A stretch of DNA of 64,000 bases, from positions 192,076,001 through 192,140,000 of the forward strand of contig OZ024742.1 of NCBI GenBank assembly GCA_964016885.1. Direction: 5' to 3'. The notes below the pieces were generated by a model. The model did no database searches and had not been told where the DNA came from. It saw only the letters and a list, made by a program, of their open reading frames with translations. This document shows, one piece after another, positions 21,762 to 58,155 of this stretch. Within the stretch, counting starts at the first letter, position 1. The number at the start of each line of letters is the position of its first letter. This DNA is from Eledone cirrhosa. Taxonomy: Eukaryota. Made by a program: the position numbers and the translations under genes.

Positions 21762-23930
21762 ATACCACTAACACCACCGACATCTCCAACACCATCACCA
21801 ACACTAACACAGTCACCAACAACACCACCACCAGCAATAACACTACCAACATCAGCCCCACCACTAACACAACCACCAATAACACCAACACCACTAACAC
21901 CAGCACTAACACCACCACCATACAACCACCACTAACACAACCGCCAATACCAACACCATTAGCACTAACACCACCACCATACAACCACCACTAACACAAC
22001 CACCAATAACACCAGCACTAACACCACCACCATACAACCACCACTAACACAACCGCCAATACCAACACCATTAGCACTAACACCACCACCATACAACCAC
22101 CACTAACACAACCACCAATAACACCAACACCACTAACACCAGCACTAACACCACCACCATACAACCACCACTAACACAACCACCAATAACACCAACACCA
22201 CTAACACCACCACCATACAACCACCACTAACACAACCGCCAATACCAACACCATTACCACTAACACCACCACCATACAACCACCACTAACACAACCGCCA
22301 ATACCAACACCATTAGCACTAACACCACCACCATACAACCACCACTAACACTACCACACCTAACACCACCACCACCAGGAATACCACTACCAACACGAAT
22401 GCCAACGCCGCCAATATCACCACCACTAACACCACCACACCTAACACCATCACCAACACCACCAGGAACACCACAACCAATACCAACACTAACACCACCA
22501 CTAACACCACAACCACCACCAACACCACTATCACAACCACCACTACCACCACCAACACCACCACCACCACTAACACAACCACCACTAACACCACCACCAA
22601 CACCACTATCACAACCACCACTACCACCACCAACACCACCACCACCACTAACATAACCACCACTAACACCACCACCAACACCACTATCACAACCACCACT
22701 ACCACCACCACCAACACCACCACCACCACTAACACCACCACCAACAACACTATCACAACCACCACTACCACCACCAACACCACCACCACCACTAACACAA
22801 CCACTACTAACACCACCACCAACACCACTATCACAACCAACACTACCACCACCACCAACACCACCACCACCACTAACAAAACCACCACTAACACCACCAC
22901 CAACACCACTATCACAACCACCACTACCACCACCAACACCACCACCACCACTAACACCACCACCACTAACACCACCACCAACAACACTATCACAACCACC
23001 ACTACCACCACCAACACCAACACAACCACTAACTCAACCACCAGTAACACCACCACCAACACCACTATCACAACCACCACTACCACCACCAACACCACCA
23101 CCACCACTAACACAACCACCACTAACACCACTACCAACACCACTATCACAACCACCACTACCACCACCACCAACACCACCACCACCACTAACACAACCAC
23201 CACTAACACCACCACCAACACCACTATCACAACTACCACTACCACTAACACCAACACCACCACCACCACTAACACAACCACCACTGACACCACCACCAAC
23301 AACACTATCACAACCACCACTACCACCACCAACACCACCACCACCACTAACACAACCACCACTAACACCACCACCAACACCACTATCACAACCACCACTA
23401 CCACTACCACCAACACCACCACCACCACCACTAACACAACCACCACTGACACCACCACCAACACCACTATCACAACCACCACTACCACCACCAACACCAC
23501 TAACACAACCACCACTAACACCACCACCAACAACACTATCACAACCACCACTACCACCACCAACACCACCACCACCACTAACACAACCACCACTAACACC
23601 ACCACCAACAACACTATCACAACCACCACTACCACCACCAACACCACCACCACCACTAACACAACCACCACTAACACCACCACCAACACCACTATCACAA
23701 CCACCACTACCACCACCAACACCACCACCAGCACTAACTCAACCACCAGTAACACCACCACCAACACCACTATCACAACCACCACTACCACCACCAACAC
23801 CACTAACACAACCACCACTAACACCACCACCAACAACACTATCACAACCACCACTACCACCACCAACACCACCACCACCACTAACACAACCACCACTAAC
23901 ACCACCACCAACAACACTATCACAACCATT
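21762..23930. repeat. (ACC/ACT/AAC)-based satellite with higher-order units
   Basis: ~59-bp units at 21900-22330, then ~70-80-bp units containing aacaccactatcacaaccaccactaccaccacc. Confidence 0.9.
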
Positions 23931-25208: not shown

Positions 25209-26099
25209 TATATACACAGTTCAAGAGTAACCAATCTTAAAGAGAGGGATGGAGATAGTAGAGTAGATATGATAGGAAAGATTGGTTAGTTAGTTAGAAG
25301 CCAAAGCGTAAAGGCATGTGCTCAATGTGCAATATGCAGTAGAAAGCAGCTAGGTGGCTGGGTTCATGCGGAGGTTAGGTGCGCAAAGCTGGAAATATTC
25401 ATTAGTTAAGCTAAACAAGACCACAAATTTCACAAGGAAGACATTATTAAAAGATTGTCAACATATTTTAGTTTGATGTAAGGAATGTAGAGAATAATAA
25501 TAATAATAATATTAATAATAATAATGTCCGTTTACAATTGTTTCGCTACTCCGTATAATATTTCTGGATCAGATGACTATGTATCATAATTAATCTGGTT
25601 CAGTTGAACATAATTAACATATTTTTAAAAAAAAACAGAGTGGCTCATCGGAACTCAAAGGAGTATAAATTAAAATAATGTTACATAATATAATGTTCCA
25701 TATATTAGTTTTTATTATGGTGCCTTGGTTGCATCAGCTGTCAGCCATAATCAAGCAGTACTCATCTGTCGAGGTTGCATTGTGTGAGATCTGCCTATGG
25801 GTAACAAGATGGCTGCCAAAGGGCATATTTACCTTACTAATTAGAGGGTGGTTTCAGGGGAAGTAACTTCTCGAGAGATTAGAGATTGTGTGTATTTTAT
25901 AGTTATGTGCTAGTATTTAAATTATTTAATTGAGAGACAATGAATGGGAGGTAACTTATAATTATCGAGTTGTTCTTAGCAATTTAACTTATTAGCTACA
26001 ATTAGAGATGGGGCTACATGACTAAGTTGGGTCAAAAACTCTATTGGCGAAGGAATTAGACCTTCGATGTTGACAGCTAATAGTTACCTCCGTTCTATC

Positions 26100-26913
26100 G
26101 TTAATTGGTAGAGGTCGTGATAGAGTTATGTAATATGCTTCCGTAACACAGAGATCACAAGATTTCCTTCGTCCATTGAACGGTTGGGCCCATAGCTACG
26201 ATATCCCATTTTAGTGAGTGTTGAACTTTGTTTAATTTAAGGCTTTTAATGAGCCTAGCTAGCGATGTCGAACATCTGTTGCTAGGGTCTCGGAAGGAAA
26301 AAGAGTGCGCGTTATAGCGTACCTTAAAAGGGTTAGAGGTAGGCCCGATATAAGAGCTGGTATTCGAAGCAGTCTCAACTGTGCACCTATAGACTATGTT
26401 GGGTGTCAGGCAGTGTCCATTTAATGGGCATGCACCGGGGTACCGGCAGTTGCAGTTGCTTCTGCGGTTAGTGAGAGTAGGGTTATTTAACCTAAGCAGT
26501 TGGTCCGTGCTAAAAGGATTAGATGGGGGAGGTGTGCTACTAGAGAAATAATTGGTGTAGTGGCGTGGTGTATTTGATAGGGGTGGTGGTACCGCGGTGT
26601 GAGAGTTATACTGTCTTAGCTTATGTTGGTTACTGAATGCGATGTGGCTAGCTAGGTTAGGTGTTGTGGAGAATGAGATTTTAATGTTGTTTTTATTAAA
26701 GAGTTTGTAATATCTATGGTTAGAGAGGAAGTGTTTGGATAGGATAGAGATGAAGCGATTGGGGATATTAGTGGCTAGATTAGATGAGAATGGTGGGTTA
26801 AGCCAGGTGATATTTCTAGGTCTATTCCTTCTAGGGGTTCTAGTGGAGTTGGTAGGGGCCTTCCTAGGATTATTATTACCTGGGGGTTTGTTATTTGTCA
26901 TCCCATTTCTCAT
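26100..26913 (-). pseudogene. PLE linker, Cys motif and GIY-YIG endonuclease (frameshifted)
   Basis: ITWLNPPFS, CNCRYPGACPLNGHC, IVYRC..YIGPT..FKVRYNAH. Confidence 0.9.
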
Positions 26914-27032
26914 TCCTATTCTAGGGTTGATTCTTCGTTTGCTACTAGGAGTGGGGAGGAGGCCGCTGCCACCATTAAAATTCTCTGTATAGGTGCTGTT
27001 ACTGCTAACATTCCGGCGAATCTGGCTATATG

Positions 27033-27580
27033 CTAAGGTATTTCTAGTTCTAGTGTTAAGTTTATTATGGTGAGTTGCTGTGATATGGCATTTTGGTATG
27101 TAATAAATTGATTGTTTATAACCAGATTCAGAGAAGCCTTATTATAATATTGTGCGTGGTTTATAAATATCTCTTCATTTGCTGATAGCATTGAGATCCT
27201 ATAGGAGATAGATTTGATTACTGCTCTGATGACTACCGGTGGGTGGTTAGAGTGAGGGCTAATATATGTGAGTATTTCGCCTGGTTTATGGTAAGGGTCA
27301 TAAAGGTTATTGTTGAGATCAAGGGTGACGTCTAGGAAGTTTACTACTTTATGGTTCAGCTCGATGGTGATAGAGAGACCGTTATTTTTGAAGAATCTAT
27401 GAAATTGTTTCTTAAGCAAATCGATTCCCCGATTAGTGCAATTGTGGACTGCAAATAGGGCGTCGTCCCTGTATATTCCACCTTGCATGGGTTGGATTTC
27501 GGCTGTGATGTTACGTAATAGGTAAATCCCAACTAAATCGGTGATTTGCGCGGAGTTACTTGAGTCCATCGTAATGTCAA
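27033..27580 (-). pseudogene. PLE reverse transcriptase, C-terminal motifs and thumb
   Basis: GIYRDDALF, VNFLDVTLDL, YHKP..YISPHSNHPP..SYRISMLS. Confidence 0.9.
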
Positions 27581-28425
27581 AAAACTAAAAATAAACAAAG
27601 TTCAACACTCACTAAAATGGGATATCGTAGCTAGGGCCCAACCGTTCAATGGACGAAGGAAATCTTGTGATCTCTGTGTTATGGAAGCATATTACATAAC
27701 TCTATCACGACCTCTACCAATTACCGATAGAACGGAGGTAACCATTAGCTGTCAACATCGAAGGGCTAATTCCTTCGCCAATAGAGTTTTTGACCCAACT
27801 TAGTCATGTAGCCCCATCTCTAATTGTAGCGAATAAGTTAAATTGCTATGAACAACTCGATAATTATAAGTTACCTCCCCTACATTGTCTCTCAATTAAA
27901 TAATTTAAATACTAGCACATAACTATAAAATACACACAATCTCTAATCTCTCGAGAAGTTACTTCCCCTGAAACCACCCTCTAATTAGTAAGGTAAATAT
28001 GCCCTTTGGCAGCTATCTTGTTACCCATAGGCAGATCTCACACAATGCAGCCTAGACAGATGAGTACTGCTTGATTATGGCTGACAGCTGATGCAACCAA
28101 GGCACCATAATAAAAACTAATATATGGAACATTATATTATGTAACATTATTTTAATTTATATTCCTTTGAGTTCCGATGAGCCACACTGTTTTTTTTTTT
28201 AAATATGTTAATTATTTTCAACTGAACCAGATCAATTATGATACATAGTCATCTGATCCAGAAATATTATACGAGTAGGGAAACAATTGTAAACAGACAT
28301 TATTATTATTAATATTATTATTATTATTATTCTCTACATTCCTTACATCAAACTAAAATATGTTGACAATCTTTTAATAATGTCTTCCTTGTGAAATTTG
28401 TTGTCTTGTTTTGCTTAACTAATGA

Positions 28426-38237: not shown

Positions 38238-38560
38238 CCAAGAGTATATATTTAATACATTAACAGAGAGAAAGCCTTAAGCGATACTCTGACCAACTCA
38301 ATCTCACTCAACAAACATTATATATATATATAAATAAACACGAGTGTGTATGATTGTGTATAGAAGATTATATTAATAAAAGGAATTCCAACTTTGTCTG
38401 ATTTACTCGTTTATTTACAATCCTTTAAAATTATAATATTATAATGAAATATTATGGTAGCATATTAAATGTTAAATGTTAATTGGACAAGTACTTTCAT
38501 GCTTTCGCAATCTTCAGGGTCATATTCAGTGGTGATAGTCAAGTTTGCAAATTTCAATGT

Positions 38561-38591
<31 letters not shown>

Positions 38592-38832
38592 GTGGTAGAA
38601 CACTGGAAGGTAATATCCATGGGACGAGTTAGGTAGAAGTGCTTACACAATAGTTAGTTCACCAAACCGAGAGCAATTGTTTACCCTTAGTGGATCCTCA
38701 CCTCGTAAATTACGTAGATTACGAGGTGAGGATCCGCTAAGGGTAAACAATTGTTCTCGGTATGGTGAACTAACTGTTGTGTAAGCACTTCTACCTAACT
38801 CGTCCCATGGATATTACCTTCCAGTGTTCTAC

Positions 38833-38926
<94 letters not shown>

Positions 38927-39035: not shown

Positions 39036-39354
39036 GTATACATTGCAATTTTCAAACTTGACTATCACCACTGAATATGACCCTGAAGATTGCGAAAGCA
39101 TGAAAGTACTTGTCCAATTAACATTTAATATGCTACCATAATATTTCATTATAATATTATAATTTTAAAGGATTGTAAATAAACGAGTAAATCAGACAAA
39201 GTTGGAATTCCTTTTATTAATATAATCTTCTATACACAATCATACACACTCGTGTATATTTATATATATATATATAATGTTTGTTGAGTGAGATTGAGTT
39301 GGTCAGAGTATCGCTTAAGGCTTTCTCTGTTAATGTATTAAATATATACTCTTG
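38238..39354. repeat. 1.1-kb composite palindrome of three TA-separated PLE-type modules
   Basis: Mirror symmetry about ~38714. Hammerhead cores at 38485-38522 (-) and 39078-39115 (+). Degenerate cores flank the centre. Confidence 0.9.
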
Positions 39355-39391
39355 TATGTACGTATACATACTTATATATATATATATATAT

Positions 39392-39494
<103 letters not shown>

Positions 39495-39574
39495 CATATA
39501 TATATATATGTATATATATATATAAGTATGTATACGTACATAAATATATATGTATACAGACGTACAGTAGTATG

Positions 39575-39615
<41 letters not shown>

Positions 39616-39618
<3 letters not shown>

Positions 39619-40114
39619 AGTATGTATACGTACATACATATATGTATACAGACGTACAGTAGTATGTATATATATATACATACATGCACACATATATATA
39701 TGTACGTATGGATTCACCGAACATTTTTTATAATGCTCGGTGTGTTTGTAAACAAACATCCCGTATTAAGCCGTGGTGTCTAGTAACCATCGTTGCTCGT
39801 TTGTTCAACACTGACAAAGGAACACTGTACTAGTTTCAAGCGAATTAGCTATCGTCAGCAACGTATACCTTCCTGCCAGATGATTGAACCTCTGAAAGTA
39901 TATACTTTCCTTATGCATATTAACGGCTGAGCAGCCTAATTTGCATATCGAGTGGGTTAATCGGCCGGGTGCACCTAAAACGATAAACGGAAAAAATGAA
40001 ACGAAATTTCATTTCCCAATCTTAGTACGGCTGTTACTTAAATATAAGTATGTATACGTACATACATATATGTATATAGACGTACAGTATTATGTATATA
40101 TATATACATACATG

Positions 40115-40161
<47 letters not shown>

Positions 40162-40857
40162 GTATGGATTCACCGAATCCATTGCTAGACACTACGGCTT
40201 AATACGGGATGTTTGTTTACAAACACACCGAGCATTATAATAAATGTTCGGTGAATCCATACGTACATATATGTATGTGTGCATGTATGTATGTATATAT
40301 ATATATACATATATATATATATACATACTACTGTACGTCTGTATACATATATGTATGTACGTGTACATACTTATATTTAAGTAACAGCCGTACTAAGAGT
40401 GAGAAATAAAATTTCGTTTCATTTTTTTCGTTTATCGTTTTCGGTGCACCCGGCCGATTAACCCACTCGATATGCAAATTAGGCTGCTCAGCCGTTAATA
40501 TGCATAAGGAAAGTATATACTTTCAGACGTTCAATCATCTGGCAGGAAGGTATACGTTGCTGACGATAGCTAATAAGCTTGAAACTAATACAGCGTTCCT
40601 TTGTCAGTGTTGAACAAACGAGCAACGATGGTTGCTAGACACTACGGCTTAATACGGGATGTTTGTTTACAAACACACCGAGCATTATAATAAATGTTCG
40701 GTGAATCCATACGTACACATATATATGTGTGCATGTATGTATATATATATACTTACTGCTGTATGTCTGTATACATATAAGTATGTACGTATACATACTT
40801 ATATTTAAGTAACAGCCGTACTAAGAGTGGGAAATGAAATTTCATTTCATTTTTTCC

Positions 40858-40862
<5 letters not shown>
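39616..40862. mobile_element. Retrozyme-like ~450-bp tandem repeat with one hammerhead per unit, in two opposed arrays
   Basis: Period 450 (ttgctagacactacgg at 40182 and 40632) and 456 (cgtatggattcaccgaa at 39705 and 40161). Orientation flips at about 40180. No meaningful ORF. Confidence 0.75.
40555..40595 (+). ncRNA. Type I minimal hammerhead (second copy about 39824-39864 on minus)
   Basis: cgttg CTGACGA t agct aata agct t GAAAC ta ATA cagcg. The minus copy has GAAAC ta GTA with palindromic ACTAGT. Confidence 0.75.
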
Positions 40863-40931
<69 letters not shown>

Positions 40932-54720: not shown

Positions 54721-57700
54721 ATGGATGTGTTAAGAGTAGGATGTTTGAATGCACGTGGCCTGGGCTCAACTTGGAAGCAAGCAAAGCTTCTAAATGACCT
54801 CAGGTCATGTGGTATAAATGTAATGGTTATCTGTGAGACTCGGATCAGCGTCGTGCGGCAGCTGGCCCCTACCTTCGATGACTTTGAGGTGCATGCATCT
54901 CTCTGTCAACCTGGAGGTGGGGGTGGGGTTGTCGTACTGCTGCAAAAACACCTGGGTCTTGCCGTACAGGTTGTTCACTCGGACCCGGAGGGTCGTTTGT
55001 TGGTACTAGACGTTGGCAGTAGTGAAGGTGCGGCCTTGAGACTGGTCGCCGTCTACTCCCCTTTCGGAGCTGAACGGCCCGACTTCTTCCAGCGTTTGGA
55101 GATTTTTCTGGGAACGTCGCGTTCCCTGCTTCTAGCGGGGGATTGGAATGACATCCTAGATGCACGTTGGGACTATGCAGGAGCATGTCCTAATAGAGGG
55201 GTGTAACAGCCTCAAGGGGTTACTCAACCGTTTTAACTTGGTCGATAGATATCGACTAGATTTTCCAACTGTGCCTACCTGGACTTGGACGAACCATAGT
55301 GGTCAATCTAGATCGTACTTAGATAGATTCTTAGTTATAAGTAAGGATAGGGACATATTAAGCTGTCCAGAAATGCGCACGGTTGGCTATACGGATCACA
55401 AATTAGTGACCTGCGTAATCAATCTCGAGAAAACACGTAAACAGGGTCCCGGTTACTGGAAACGTAATTTGTCTTTACCGGCAAAAGAGACTTACAGAAA
55501 CCGGATTAGCAGATTAGTTAAGGAGAGGTTGACGGGTGCAATCGTCAACAACCGATGGTGGGCATCTCTCAAAAGAGAGATTAGAACAGAATCAATAAGT
55601 TATAGCAAGATGTTAGCTGCCGATAGGAATAGAAACGAGAAAGAATTAACAGGTAAATTAGAAGAGGCAATCAAGAGCGAAAATGTGGTCAGCGTGCTGG
55701 CATCGAGGACGGCATTGAACCAGTTTTTCGATGCAAAGCACGAAGGCTGCGTCATTCGAAGTAAAATACGTGCTCTAGGTAATGAGGGGGCCAAAGCCGT
55801 TGGCTGGGCCCGCGTGACAGAAGCTAAGAGTAGAAATCGATCCACCATCCGGTCGTTGCAAGACGAGGATGGACGGGTGATCCGGGAGCCTAAGCAGATG
55901 TGCGAGGCCTTTCAAAGGCACTTTGCCCGATTATTCGGGGGAGGCGAGGGTCCGGGCGGGGACGTGAATTTCGGTCCATACGACGACGGCCTGCCGCGTC
56001 TCTCGAGTGAAGAGGCAGAGTCCTGCGAGGGACCAATCTCGGCTGATGAGATCGGGGATGCGCTGAGCCAATGCAGCAGACGCAAATCTCCAGGTCTCGA
56101 TGGTATACCTTACGAACTTTATTTAGCAATGCCGGTCATCTTCTCCGAACTCCTCGAAGCGGTCTACTGCAATTGGCAGCAGAACGGGAGAATTCCTTGT
56201 TCTGTAGCCAAGGGCGTAGTCTCGCTGGTGAGGAAGGACGAGAACAAGGGGGATAGTATAAATAATGTTCGGCCCATAACCCTACTAAACACAGAGTTAA
56301 AGATTTTGGCCAAGGTGTTAGCAAAGAGGTTGGCGCTTGTCGTGGGTAGCCTGGTGGGAGATGCGCAGACATGTGCTATCCCATCCAGGTCCATTCACGA
56401 TAACCTCCACCTCATGCGATACATCATAGAGAGGGTTGGCAACAAACCCGGCTTCGGTGGGGCCCTGATCAACTTGGATCAGTCTAAGGCCTTCGATAGG
56501 ATCGACCATGGTTACCTGGATGTGGTGCTAGCGGCGGCTGGGTTCGGTCCTGTTTTCAGAGGCTGGATCACTGCCTTACATAGCAACCACATCTGTTCTA
56601 GGATCAAGGTAAACGGCTACCTTTCGAAGCCGTTCGAAATCACACGATCCATTCGACAGGGGTGCCCTCTCTCCTCCCTTCTGTACGTATTGACTCTCGA
56701 GCCTTTACTGAGGAAGTTGGAGTTGTTGCAGGGTATCCCCCTGGAACCAGGATTGAGCAAAGCGGTGTCCGCCTACGCCGATGACGTAACAGTAATGGTA
56801 TCGACCGACTCGGAGATCGAGGCGATCGGTACCTTACTGGAGGATTACGAAAGGTTGTCAGGAGCGAAACTGAACCGGGAAAAATCCATCGGGCTGCAAC
56901 TCGGAACGTGGAGAGGCAGACCGATGCCTCCCGACGGTGTCGTCGGACACTGGACGGAGGGCCCGGTAAAGTTGCTTGGGGTCTGGTTTGGACCGGACCT
57001 CCAGGTGGAAAAGAACTGGGACGAGGTTACGAACAAGGTGTTTGCACTAACCCAGAGATGGGCCAAGTGTAAGCTGTCCCTAAAAGGCCGGGCGGAGGTG
57101 GCGAACATTTACATAGCGTCCGTCACTTACTACCGCCTGACTGTCGTGCCTTGCCCTAAGGAAACACTCACCAGCATGGAACGCATGCTCTTCCAATTTC
57201 TTTGGAAGAAGCGCCCTCCTATGGTGAGAAGATCCATCTGCTGCCAACAACCTTCGAAAGGAGGGCTGGGGATGCCGTGGTTGATGATGCGTAGGCACGC
57301 ATTAAGGCTACGGCACCTACAGGTATTCCTCACTGGTCAACCGGTGTGGGCTCCGTTCGTGAAACGAGCCTTTCCGAGACTCGTCTCGCTCACCGAGCTG
57401 CAGTCCTGGGTCAAGCAAAGATCCGGAAAACTGGGAGACTGGCACACTGAGTGCGCTCAGGCGCTCAGGGCTCTCTGGCAAGCGGGCCAGGCCATCGGTG
57501 GAGAATCCACCTCATCGTTCTATAGAGGGCTGGTGGCTAACAGGGGCGATGACACCCTTGGAGAGTCGCTGGACATGGAAGAGGACGAAATGGCCAGCCT
57601 GTTCGGTAGGACTTTCGGCCCGGGACCAATGGACAACTTCCAGAAGTCACTAGCCTGGCAGTGCTACCGGGGGCTCTACCCGTTCGAGAGAGGCTCTACA

Positions 57701-58155
57701 GACACGGGCGCCCGGGCAGGGATCCCTCGAAAAAGATTTGCCCTAGATGCGTGCGTCACGAAGAAACCGTTGCGCACGCATTGGTGCAATGTCCGGGCGT
57801 GGCTGATCTGTGGGGCTACGCCGAACGACTGCTGTCGCGGGTGGCGCCGATTCGATTGACCGCCGAGTCCGTGATGACAATCAAACCGCCTCCCCTCTTC
57901 ACAAAGGAAGCGAAGGCGGTTTTTCTGTGCGTAATAGCCATGTTGAAAGAGGTTGTTTGGTGGACACGATTGAAAGATCTGAGGTCAGGCAACTTCCTCT
58001 CTGGCCATAGTCTGGTCTACTTCTTCCGATATCACTTCGGAAGAAGGATAAGAATGGAGAGAGAGGTGCTTGGCCACAGCCAGTTTTATGAAAGGTGGGT
58101 GATAGTGGCTAGAATGGCTCGTGTAAATGGGCCTTCTCTGTATACCATCCTGTAG
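54721..58155 (+). pseudogene. Tx1-type ORF2 (APE endonuclease, reverse transcriptase, CCHC-like domain) with two frameshifts
   Basis: CLNARGL, ICETR, AGDWN, SYLDR, TDH; SPGLDG, RPITLLN, LDQSKAFD, RQGCPLS, YADD; CPRC..ETVAHALVQC. Frameshifts near 55200 and 57670. Confidence 0.92.

Follow-up and report, generated by a model that had tools for sequence, protein, structure and literature searches.

How did two oppositely oriented arrays of a non-coding, hammerhead-bearing unit come to lie 5' to 5' between runs of TA in the genome of Eledone cirrhosa, and from what RNA were they copied? Wider versions of these questions are open in the literature, as far as the available text of the sources goes: whether retrozyme circles serve as templates for reverse transcription and which enzyme mobilizes retrozymes (PMC7229834, PMC7761336), and how the tandem and inverted structures of PLEs originate (PMC8557442). 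The four E. cirrhosa families described here, A to D, let both be tested from genome sequence alone. We favor, with moderate confidence, the reading that the locus is a decayed copy of a non-LTR retrozyme that was likely pasted by a PLE into a TA microsatellite through priming at both cut strands, with one circular RNA unit most likely being copied.

Anatomy of the locus and its family

Coordinates refer to the window, the whole 64,000-nt stretch of DNA that was analyzed. Positions within the unit (r1-422) refer to a natural unit, L061:2935-3356, in which r117 is the first base of the hammerhead core and cleavage is predicted after r147. On this 422-nt reference, the locus comprises 1.27 units on the minus strand joined 5' to 5' to 1.55 units on the plus strand, in agreement with the ~1.2 and ~1.5 monomers of the original prediction. 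The minus arm (39616-40177) corresponds to r254-422 followed by r1-~366: it is 5'-truncated at r~254 and its 3' end lies at a short site (r~362-366), ...CTTAT, followed by (TA)n. The plus arm (40182-40863) corresponds to r189-422 followed by r1-422: it is 5'-truncated at r~189 and its 3' end lies at a long site (r422), ...CCGTTTAT, followed by (AT)n. The 56-nt "tail" that separates these two sites (40808-40863, plus strand) is terminal in the plus arm only; the tail of PLEs is described in the available text of PMC8557442 and PMC11167929. The 5'-to-5' junction (40164-40183) contains a small snap-back hairpin, GGATTC-ACC-GAATCC, and the arms are linked there by a few templated bases. The inverted arms align with 93% complementarity (39611-40154 against 40264-40807). 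Within the left (TA)n target (39373-39615), another short-end start lies at 39524 (minus strand), and a plus-strand short-end stub (~39353-39372) directly precedes this target. The right (TA)n target spans 40861-40927.

The TA/CA-rich segment that had been assigned to the unit was located within it, at 40256-40375 on the plus strand. It forms a long self-complementary hairpin, is expanded in the window copy and stops at the short 3' site. A direct repeat at 40182/40632 has a spacing of 450 nt. The proposed 450-bp unit accordingly describes this TA-expanded copy, units of its family, family A, being mostly 420-433 nt.

Each arm carries a single type I hammerhead, at 39806-39880 on the minus strand and at 40538-40612 on the plus strand. 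Their cores, CTGACGA...GAAAC-TA-[G/A]TA, start at 39858 and 40560, stem I is cgttg/cagyg as originally claimed, and the predicted cuts fall after 39828 (GUA) and after 40590, respectively. In the minus-arm hammerhead, an A>C change opens the outer stem II pair and the ACUAGU helix III is intact. In the plus-arm hammerhead, a G>A change at 40588 breaks the ACTAGT palindrome of helix III, for which the computed self-duplex energy is +1.8 kcal/mol with the change versus -4.8 kcal/mol when intact. With a lesion in each hammerhead, the window copy is probably a decayed and dead insertion. Moreover, each arm has a single hammerhead, so the locus is unable to excise a monomer. Helix III of the palindromic ACUAGU form is weak for monomers and active as dimers, according to the available text of PMC7229834 and PMC4209133.

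Searching the window with Rfam at the gathering threshold gave no match, and short-region folding z-scores were only -0.7 to -1.4. The hammerhead call is based on core conservation and covariation. In 12 hand-picked copies from four families, the core was constant save at position 7; in the same sample, which includes few independent events, stems I and II stayed paired through double changes, both sides having changed in 6 of 13 pairs, and 92.6% of cells were paired. Helix III across the four families consists of an A-U pair plus a CUAG palindrome. In family A, the core, stem II and the palindrome were all intact in 119 of 172 hammerheads. Families A and B are 93% identical over the hammerhead, 68% just downstream and 90% over the TA hairpin. 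Among family A copies, core sites were hardly better conserved than other sites (3.2% versus 4.0%), which counts against the reading preferred here; decay of the core at near the background rate is what is expected of inserted copies. A young unit folded far below its shuffles (z -7.7), with the TA hairpin contributing much.

A 22-mer from the family A hammerhead had 8,478 exact matches in the 3.0-Gb assembly and its reversed control had none, which excludes chance. Sister family B is ~75% identical to A and had 14,779 matches, with units of 460-540 nt; sister family C had 1,088 motif matches; and sister family D, which is distant and very young, had 3,220 matches and 469-nt units. Genome-wide, intact hammerhead motifs of the A/B/C type numbered 27,080 (controls, 0) and those of the D type 3,220 (control, 0). 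Arrays reach at least 10 units in family A and 19 segments in family D. No stop-free frame of more than 60 codons was found across three tandem family A units. The unit thus has no ORF in which the RT and GIY-YIG domains of an autonomous PLE could be encoded, and each arm is bordered at its ends by TA or by its inverted partner.

By these sequence features, the element is a non-LTR retrozyme, and the marks of PLE insertion are present. The original prediction of a non-coding, dispersed and multimeric element with a type I hammerhead, mobilized in the manner of PLEs, is supported by the copy number, the lack of an ORF and the PLE signature at its ends. Two possibilities raised at the time, that the unit is confined to one locus or that it exists only as the terminal pLTR of a coding PLE, do not fit a genome with dispersed non-coding multimers. 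The family is not described in the literature searched on retrozymes, cephalopod hammerheads, PLEs and RNA editing; its hammerheads may already be listed elsewhere. That the family is undescribed is plausible.

Ends and insertion geometry

Ends were mapped in the first 100 family A matches on contig 1, the best 30 matches genome-wide and, for family B, a portion of its first 100 matches. Outer 3' ends were located at two fixed sites 56 nt apart, the short (r~362-366) and long (r422) sites, and TA-rich DNA adjoined 141 of 176 scored ends. All head-to-head pairs were joined 5' to 5'. One arm was short and the other long in 55 of 56 scorable pairs of families A and B (20 of 76 were unscorable; the count includes the window and counts one duplicated locus twice) and in 35 of 36 scorable pairs of family D (6 of 42 were unscorable). 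All 74 typed A/B pairs (two were untyped) consisted of arms from a single family, although B is at least as abundant as A. The contig-1 sample of family A contained 37 head-to-head events versus 32 single arms. One locus with arms tail to tail, L171, was ambiguous and was left out of the counts. Where target-site duplication was considered, the flanks of the insertions were (TA)n runs. Inner 5' ends were evenly spread along the unit. The predicted circular permutation of the array ends therefore holds for these inner ends and fails for the outer 3' ends, which are fixed at two sites.

Two fixed 3' ends, one per arm, are the known tail signature of PLEs. In its available text, Craig et al. 2021 (PMC8557442) describes PLEs with an inverted copy, a tail at one end and (TA)n targets. 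Frangieh et al. 2024 (PMC11167929), likewise as far as available, reports in vitro cleavage and extension of both DNA strands by an anole PLE protein, initiation at two adjacent internal sites and a predicted dimer of the protein. We infer that the insertions were twin-primed, with a PLE dimer copying a single RNA. The head-to-head mirror of the original prediction is present at the locus but has no circle-specific property, inverted 5'-truncated copies with a tail at one end being known from PLEs (PMC8557442, available text). The counted rule of one short and one long arm, which held in 90 of 92 scorable pairs and is new relative to the literature searched, constrains the PLE mechanism.

The insertions could have formed as follows. 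Tandem donors would be transcribed, and hammerheads would pair through a dimeric ACUAGU helix III and cut, releasing a monomer that would then be ligated. A dimer of a PLE protein with RT and GIY-YIG domains would cut both strands of a (TA)n run, and one cDNA would be started from the long site and the other from the short site of one RNA, both putative RT start sites ending in a UUAU-like sequence. Each cDNA would circle the unit until it broke off at an arbitrary position, and its end would be joined to that of the other cDNA. The fixed ends, the pairing of one short with one long arm, the TA flanks, the random 5' ends, the same-family arms, the lack of an ORF and private changes present in all units (see below) are the observed part of this explanation. 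The full proposal, in which a PLE dimer copies one hammerhead-made circle in both directions of the double-strand cut, with one subunit per fixed site and ADAR edits stamped in all units, is one that we consider evenly balanced between right and wrong. If true, the genome would directly record retrozyme circles as transposition templates and head-to-head PLE insertions as twin-primed events, two ideas that until now have been no more than proposals.

The template of the arrays

Template type was evaluated by comparing rare changes fixed in every unit of an insertion with single-unit changes, both read on the RNA strand. In 57 family D insertions, using alleles present in at most two insertions, fixed changes comprised 21 A>G versus 3 T>C, and single-unit changes 17 versus 30 (Fisher p 4e-5). 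For alleles in one insertion, the counts were 10 versus 1 for fixed and 12 versus 22 for single-unit changes; for alleles in at most three insertions, they were 25 versus 3 and 19 versus 34. The test is not independent by site, since a single insertion, L342, contributes 9 of the 21 fixed A>G changes: counted per insertion, the ratio was 7 versus 2, and an earlier tally with L342 excluded gave 8 versus 2 (binomial p 0.11; Fisher 0.016).

L342, a family D insertion of 2.8 units, carried 9-10 rare changes in every unit, each of them A>G and located within r12-136, and no unit-specific A>G. A 22-mer containing two of these A>G changes occurred in the assembly only at L342 (2 matches). L410 contains a second A>G cluster, part of which is shared by the arms. 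In L400, two private changes were present in 6 of 6 nearly identical units and in both arms; four other loci had the first of these changes and none of them had the second. L388 also carried private changes fixed across both inverted arms. Of the 38 two-armed insertions with at least four segments, seven had a rare change fixed in at least three units over both arms.

ADAR editing produces A>G changes, and RNA editing is reported to be heavy in coleoids. The all-unit A>G changes suggest A-to-I edits in a single monomer, of which repeated copies were then made. Two caveats apply to this reading: the donor may be missing from the assembly, and a transcription-linked strand bias in the donor could add A>G changes, in which case a one-unit bottleneck would still be needed. 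No description of the all-unit A>G signature was found in the literature searched. Comparison of all-unit with single-unit A>G edits separates monomer from multimer templates and is applicable to any retrozyme or PLE family in animals with active RNA editing.

The 26 insertions picked as closest to a query, a set biased against fixed changes, had three fixed private changes, none of them A>G. Fixed A>G versus T>C changes numbered 3 versus 1 in family A and 2 versus 2 in family B. Families A and B are thus uninformative, and for the window's own family the circle is an extrapolation by homology. Rolling reverse transcription of a ~450-nt circular RNA, as originally proposed, has gained indirect genomic support, mainly from family D; the mirror structure lends it none that is specific to a circle.

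A pure monomer circle does not account for all arrays. Some family A arrays are true mosaics of subfamilies: strictly counted, an 8-nt subfamily indel was discordant in 2 of 23 events scored within an arm and in 2 of 29 scored between opposite arms, and the corresponding figures for a TG indel were 2 of 11 and 3 of 15. In L341, two changes are common to the outermost units only, and this insertion looks derived from a multimer template. The mosaics and the L341 pattern together are impossible from a pure monomer circle. L387 is a family D array that mixes D1 and D2 subfamily units. DNA-level duplication has reshaped the arrays L062, L063 and L351. A dimer circle, considered for alternating spacings of 420/422 and 422/424, was rejected on two grounds: unit 3 of L063 is chimeric between units 1 and 5, and the outer AB pair of L062 differs from the inner four. 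More than one template route probably operates.

These observations bear on the strongest rival, in which an uncut linear multimer was the template of the same two-ended PLE insertion, the arrays are regrown and homogenized at the DNA level through gene conversion and unequal crossing-over, and the hammerhead is an incidental feature. The family A mosaics and L341 speak for it, as do the ABAB arrays, which the L063 chimera marks as DNA duplications. In addition, uncut RNA was the main in vitro substrate of the PLE (PMC11167929) and 8 of 9 Xenopus dimers showed no cleavage (bioRxiv 10.64898/2026.07.22.740005), in the available text of each. Nevertheless, the inverted arms of L400 and of L388 share fixed private changes in units that are otherwise identical, only the all-unit class shows an A>G excess, the L342 22-mer occurs at no second locus, and hammerhead stems have stayed paired through double changes in four families. 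We regard the uncut multimer as unlikely to be the template, at roughly one chance in a few.

It is still less probable that the template was a linear monomer cut by the hammerhead, with the RT, on reaching its 5' end, jumping to the 3' end of that monomer or a different one and no circle being involved. R2-type RTs are known for such end-to-end jumps, and jumping would account for the fixed private changes as well as the mosaics. However, it is opposed by the absence of a pile-up of 5' ends at the predicted cut site, where 3 of 150 were located in family A and 2 of 99 in family D, and by cut-site junctions that were seamless, with a nearby indel in 1 of 273 in family D and a deletion in 3 of 187 in family A. 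Finally, it is highly improbable that one cDNA folded back and copied itself to make the mirror, with endonuclease cleavage producing the second fixed end: symmetry at internal hairpins (d=0) is found for several junctions, the window junction has its snap-back and PMC8557442, in its available text, attributes the tail to EN-mediated resolution, but arm lengths were uncorrelated and containment fit neither direction in 19 of 53 pairs, with the rest split 18 versus 16 between the two orders, a geometry that later central deletions could blur or mimic. Copying of one circular RNA unit by a PLE remains the reading we prefer.

Coding PLEs and known systems

Three coding PLE families were compared with the unit, and no pLTR sequence in common with it was found in the Hydra-type H1, Hydra-type H2 or Neptune-type families. 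The Hydra-type H2 (L227, L228) has the same two 3' ends, with a 1.1-kb 3' region that contains a ~135-nt internal repeat; no canonical hammerhead was found. A young Neptune-type PLE (L296:4145-6469) has many intact 775-codon frames at 98-99% identity and two 3' ends ~64 nt apart. Six of seven clear pairs of the Neptune-type family read as mixed (short plus long), a count unverified in depth, and no canonical CUGANGA hammerhead was found in its 3' region. This PLE is a candidate helper. A 5'-to-5' junction between H2 and a family A tail stub, at L004:1324-1330, was the single case among 57 single-arm flanks. Another locus, L187:1940-2060, has a 5'-to-5' junction of H2 with a Neptune-type element. 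Such cross-family junctions possibly reflect mixed twin priming. Foreign partner arms gave no signal among 45 flanks, with three hammerheads pointing away and four toward.

The window contains several other features. A broken Hydra-clade PLE on the minus strand (26025-27800) has a CxCx5C linker and a short inverted 3' copy at 27570-27800; it has many relatives in the genome, with open frames of up to 727 aa, and intact relatives have a DKT motif. At least six further families of hammerhead-like motifs are present, several as head-to-head or tandem pairs, and are likely PLE ends or retrozyme families. These motifs are located at 38517(-)/39083(+)/47233(+), 29235(-)/29242(+), 36326/36921(+), 1716(+)/5878(-), 46482(-), 48257(-), 61720(-)/62099(+) and 25066(-). 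A perfect 157-bp spacerless hairpin lies between two (TA)n runs at 38557-38870, within a 160-bp inverted repeat, and is similar in sequence to a motif that lies downstream of a Hydra-type PLE fragment in L218. An 899-codon frame with an RVT_1 domain at 55160-57859 on the plus strand represents a LINE-type retrotransposon. A 2.1-kb CA-rich degenerate tandem repeat at 21786-23928 has a strong strand skew and long open frames.

The comparisons that follow are with the available text of the sources cited. Metazoan non-LTR retrozymes (Cervera and de la Pena 2020, PMC7229834) are AT-rich, non-coding tandem arrays in which every unit bears one type I hammerhead, and they reach thousands of copies, as here. 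Their reported range is 150-450 bp, whereas the units in E. cirrhosa, at 420-540 nt, are at or over its top. Expression and circles are reported for them, whereas the E. cirrhosa families are known from genome sequence alone. A search of that text for the terms "inverted", "head-to-head", "microsatellite" and "octopus" found none of them. The axolotl hammerhead HHR_Amex1 likewise has a helix III of one pair plus a palindromic tetraloop, and the U.U at the base of helix II in HHR_Amex2 is found in families A and B as well (PMC7229834).

Vertebrate retrozymes are tandem hammerhead units proposed to use PLE machinery, as here; 24 of 57 Xenopus families matched known repeats, mostly PLE ends, whereas no parent was found among the three PLE families compared here and the link is the anatomy of the insertions (bioRxiv 10.64898/2026.07.22.740005). 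Chlamys non-autonomous PLEs, such as MRC1, are PLE passengers that form multicopy head-to-tail insertions, as here; unlike the E. cirrhosa families, they have 3' sequence in common with autonomous partners, and most Chlamys are without canonical hammerheads (PMC8557442). The tail of EN+ PLEs is 30-40 nt, whereas that of the E. cirrhosa families is 56-70 nt, with no ORF in the element. Nevertheless, the EN+ PLEs Neptune, Hydra and Poseidon have in common with the E. cirrhosa families partial tandems, 5' truncation, an inverted 5'-truncated copy, a one-ended tail, (TA)n targets and two adjacent RT starts (PMC8557442, PMC11167929).
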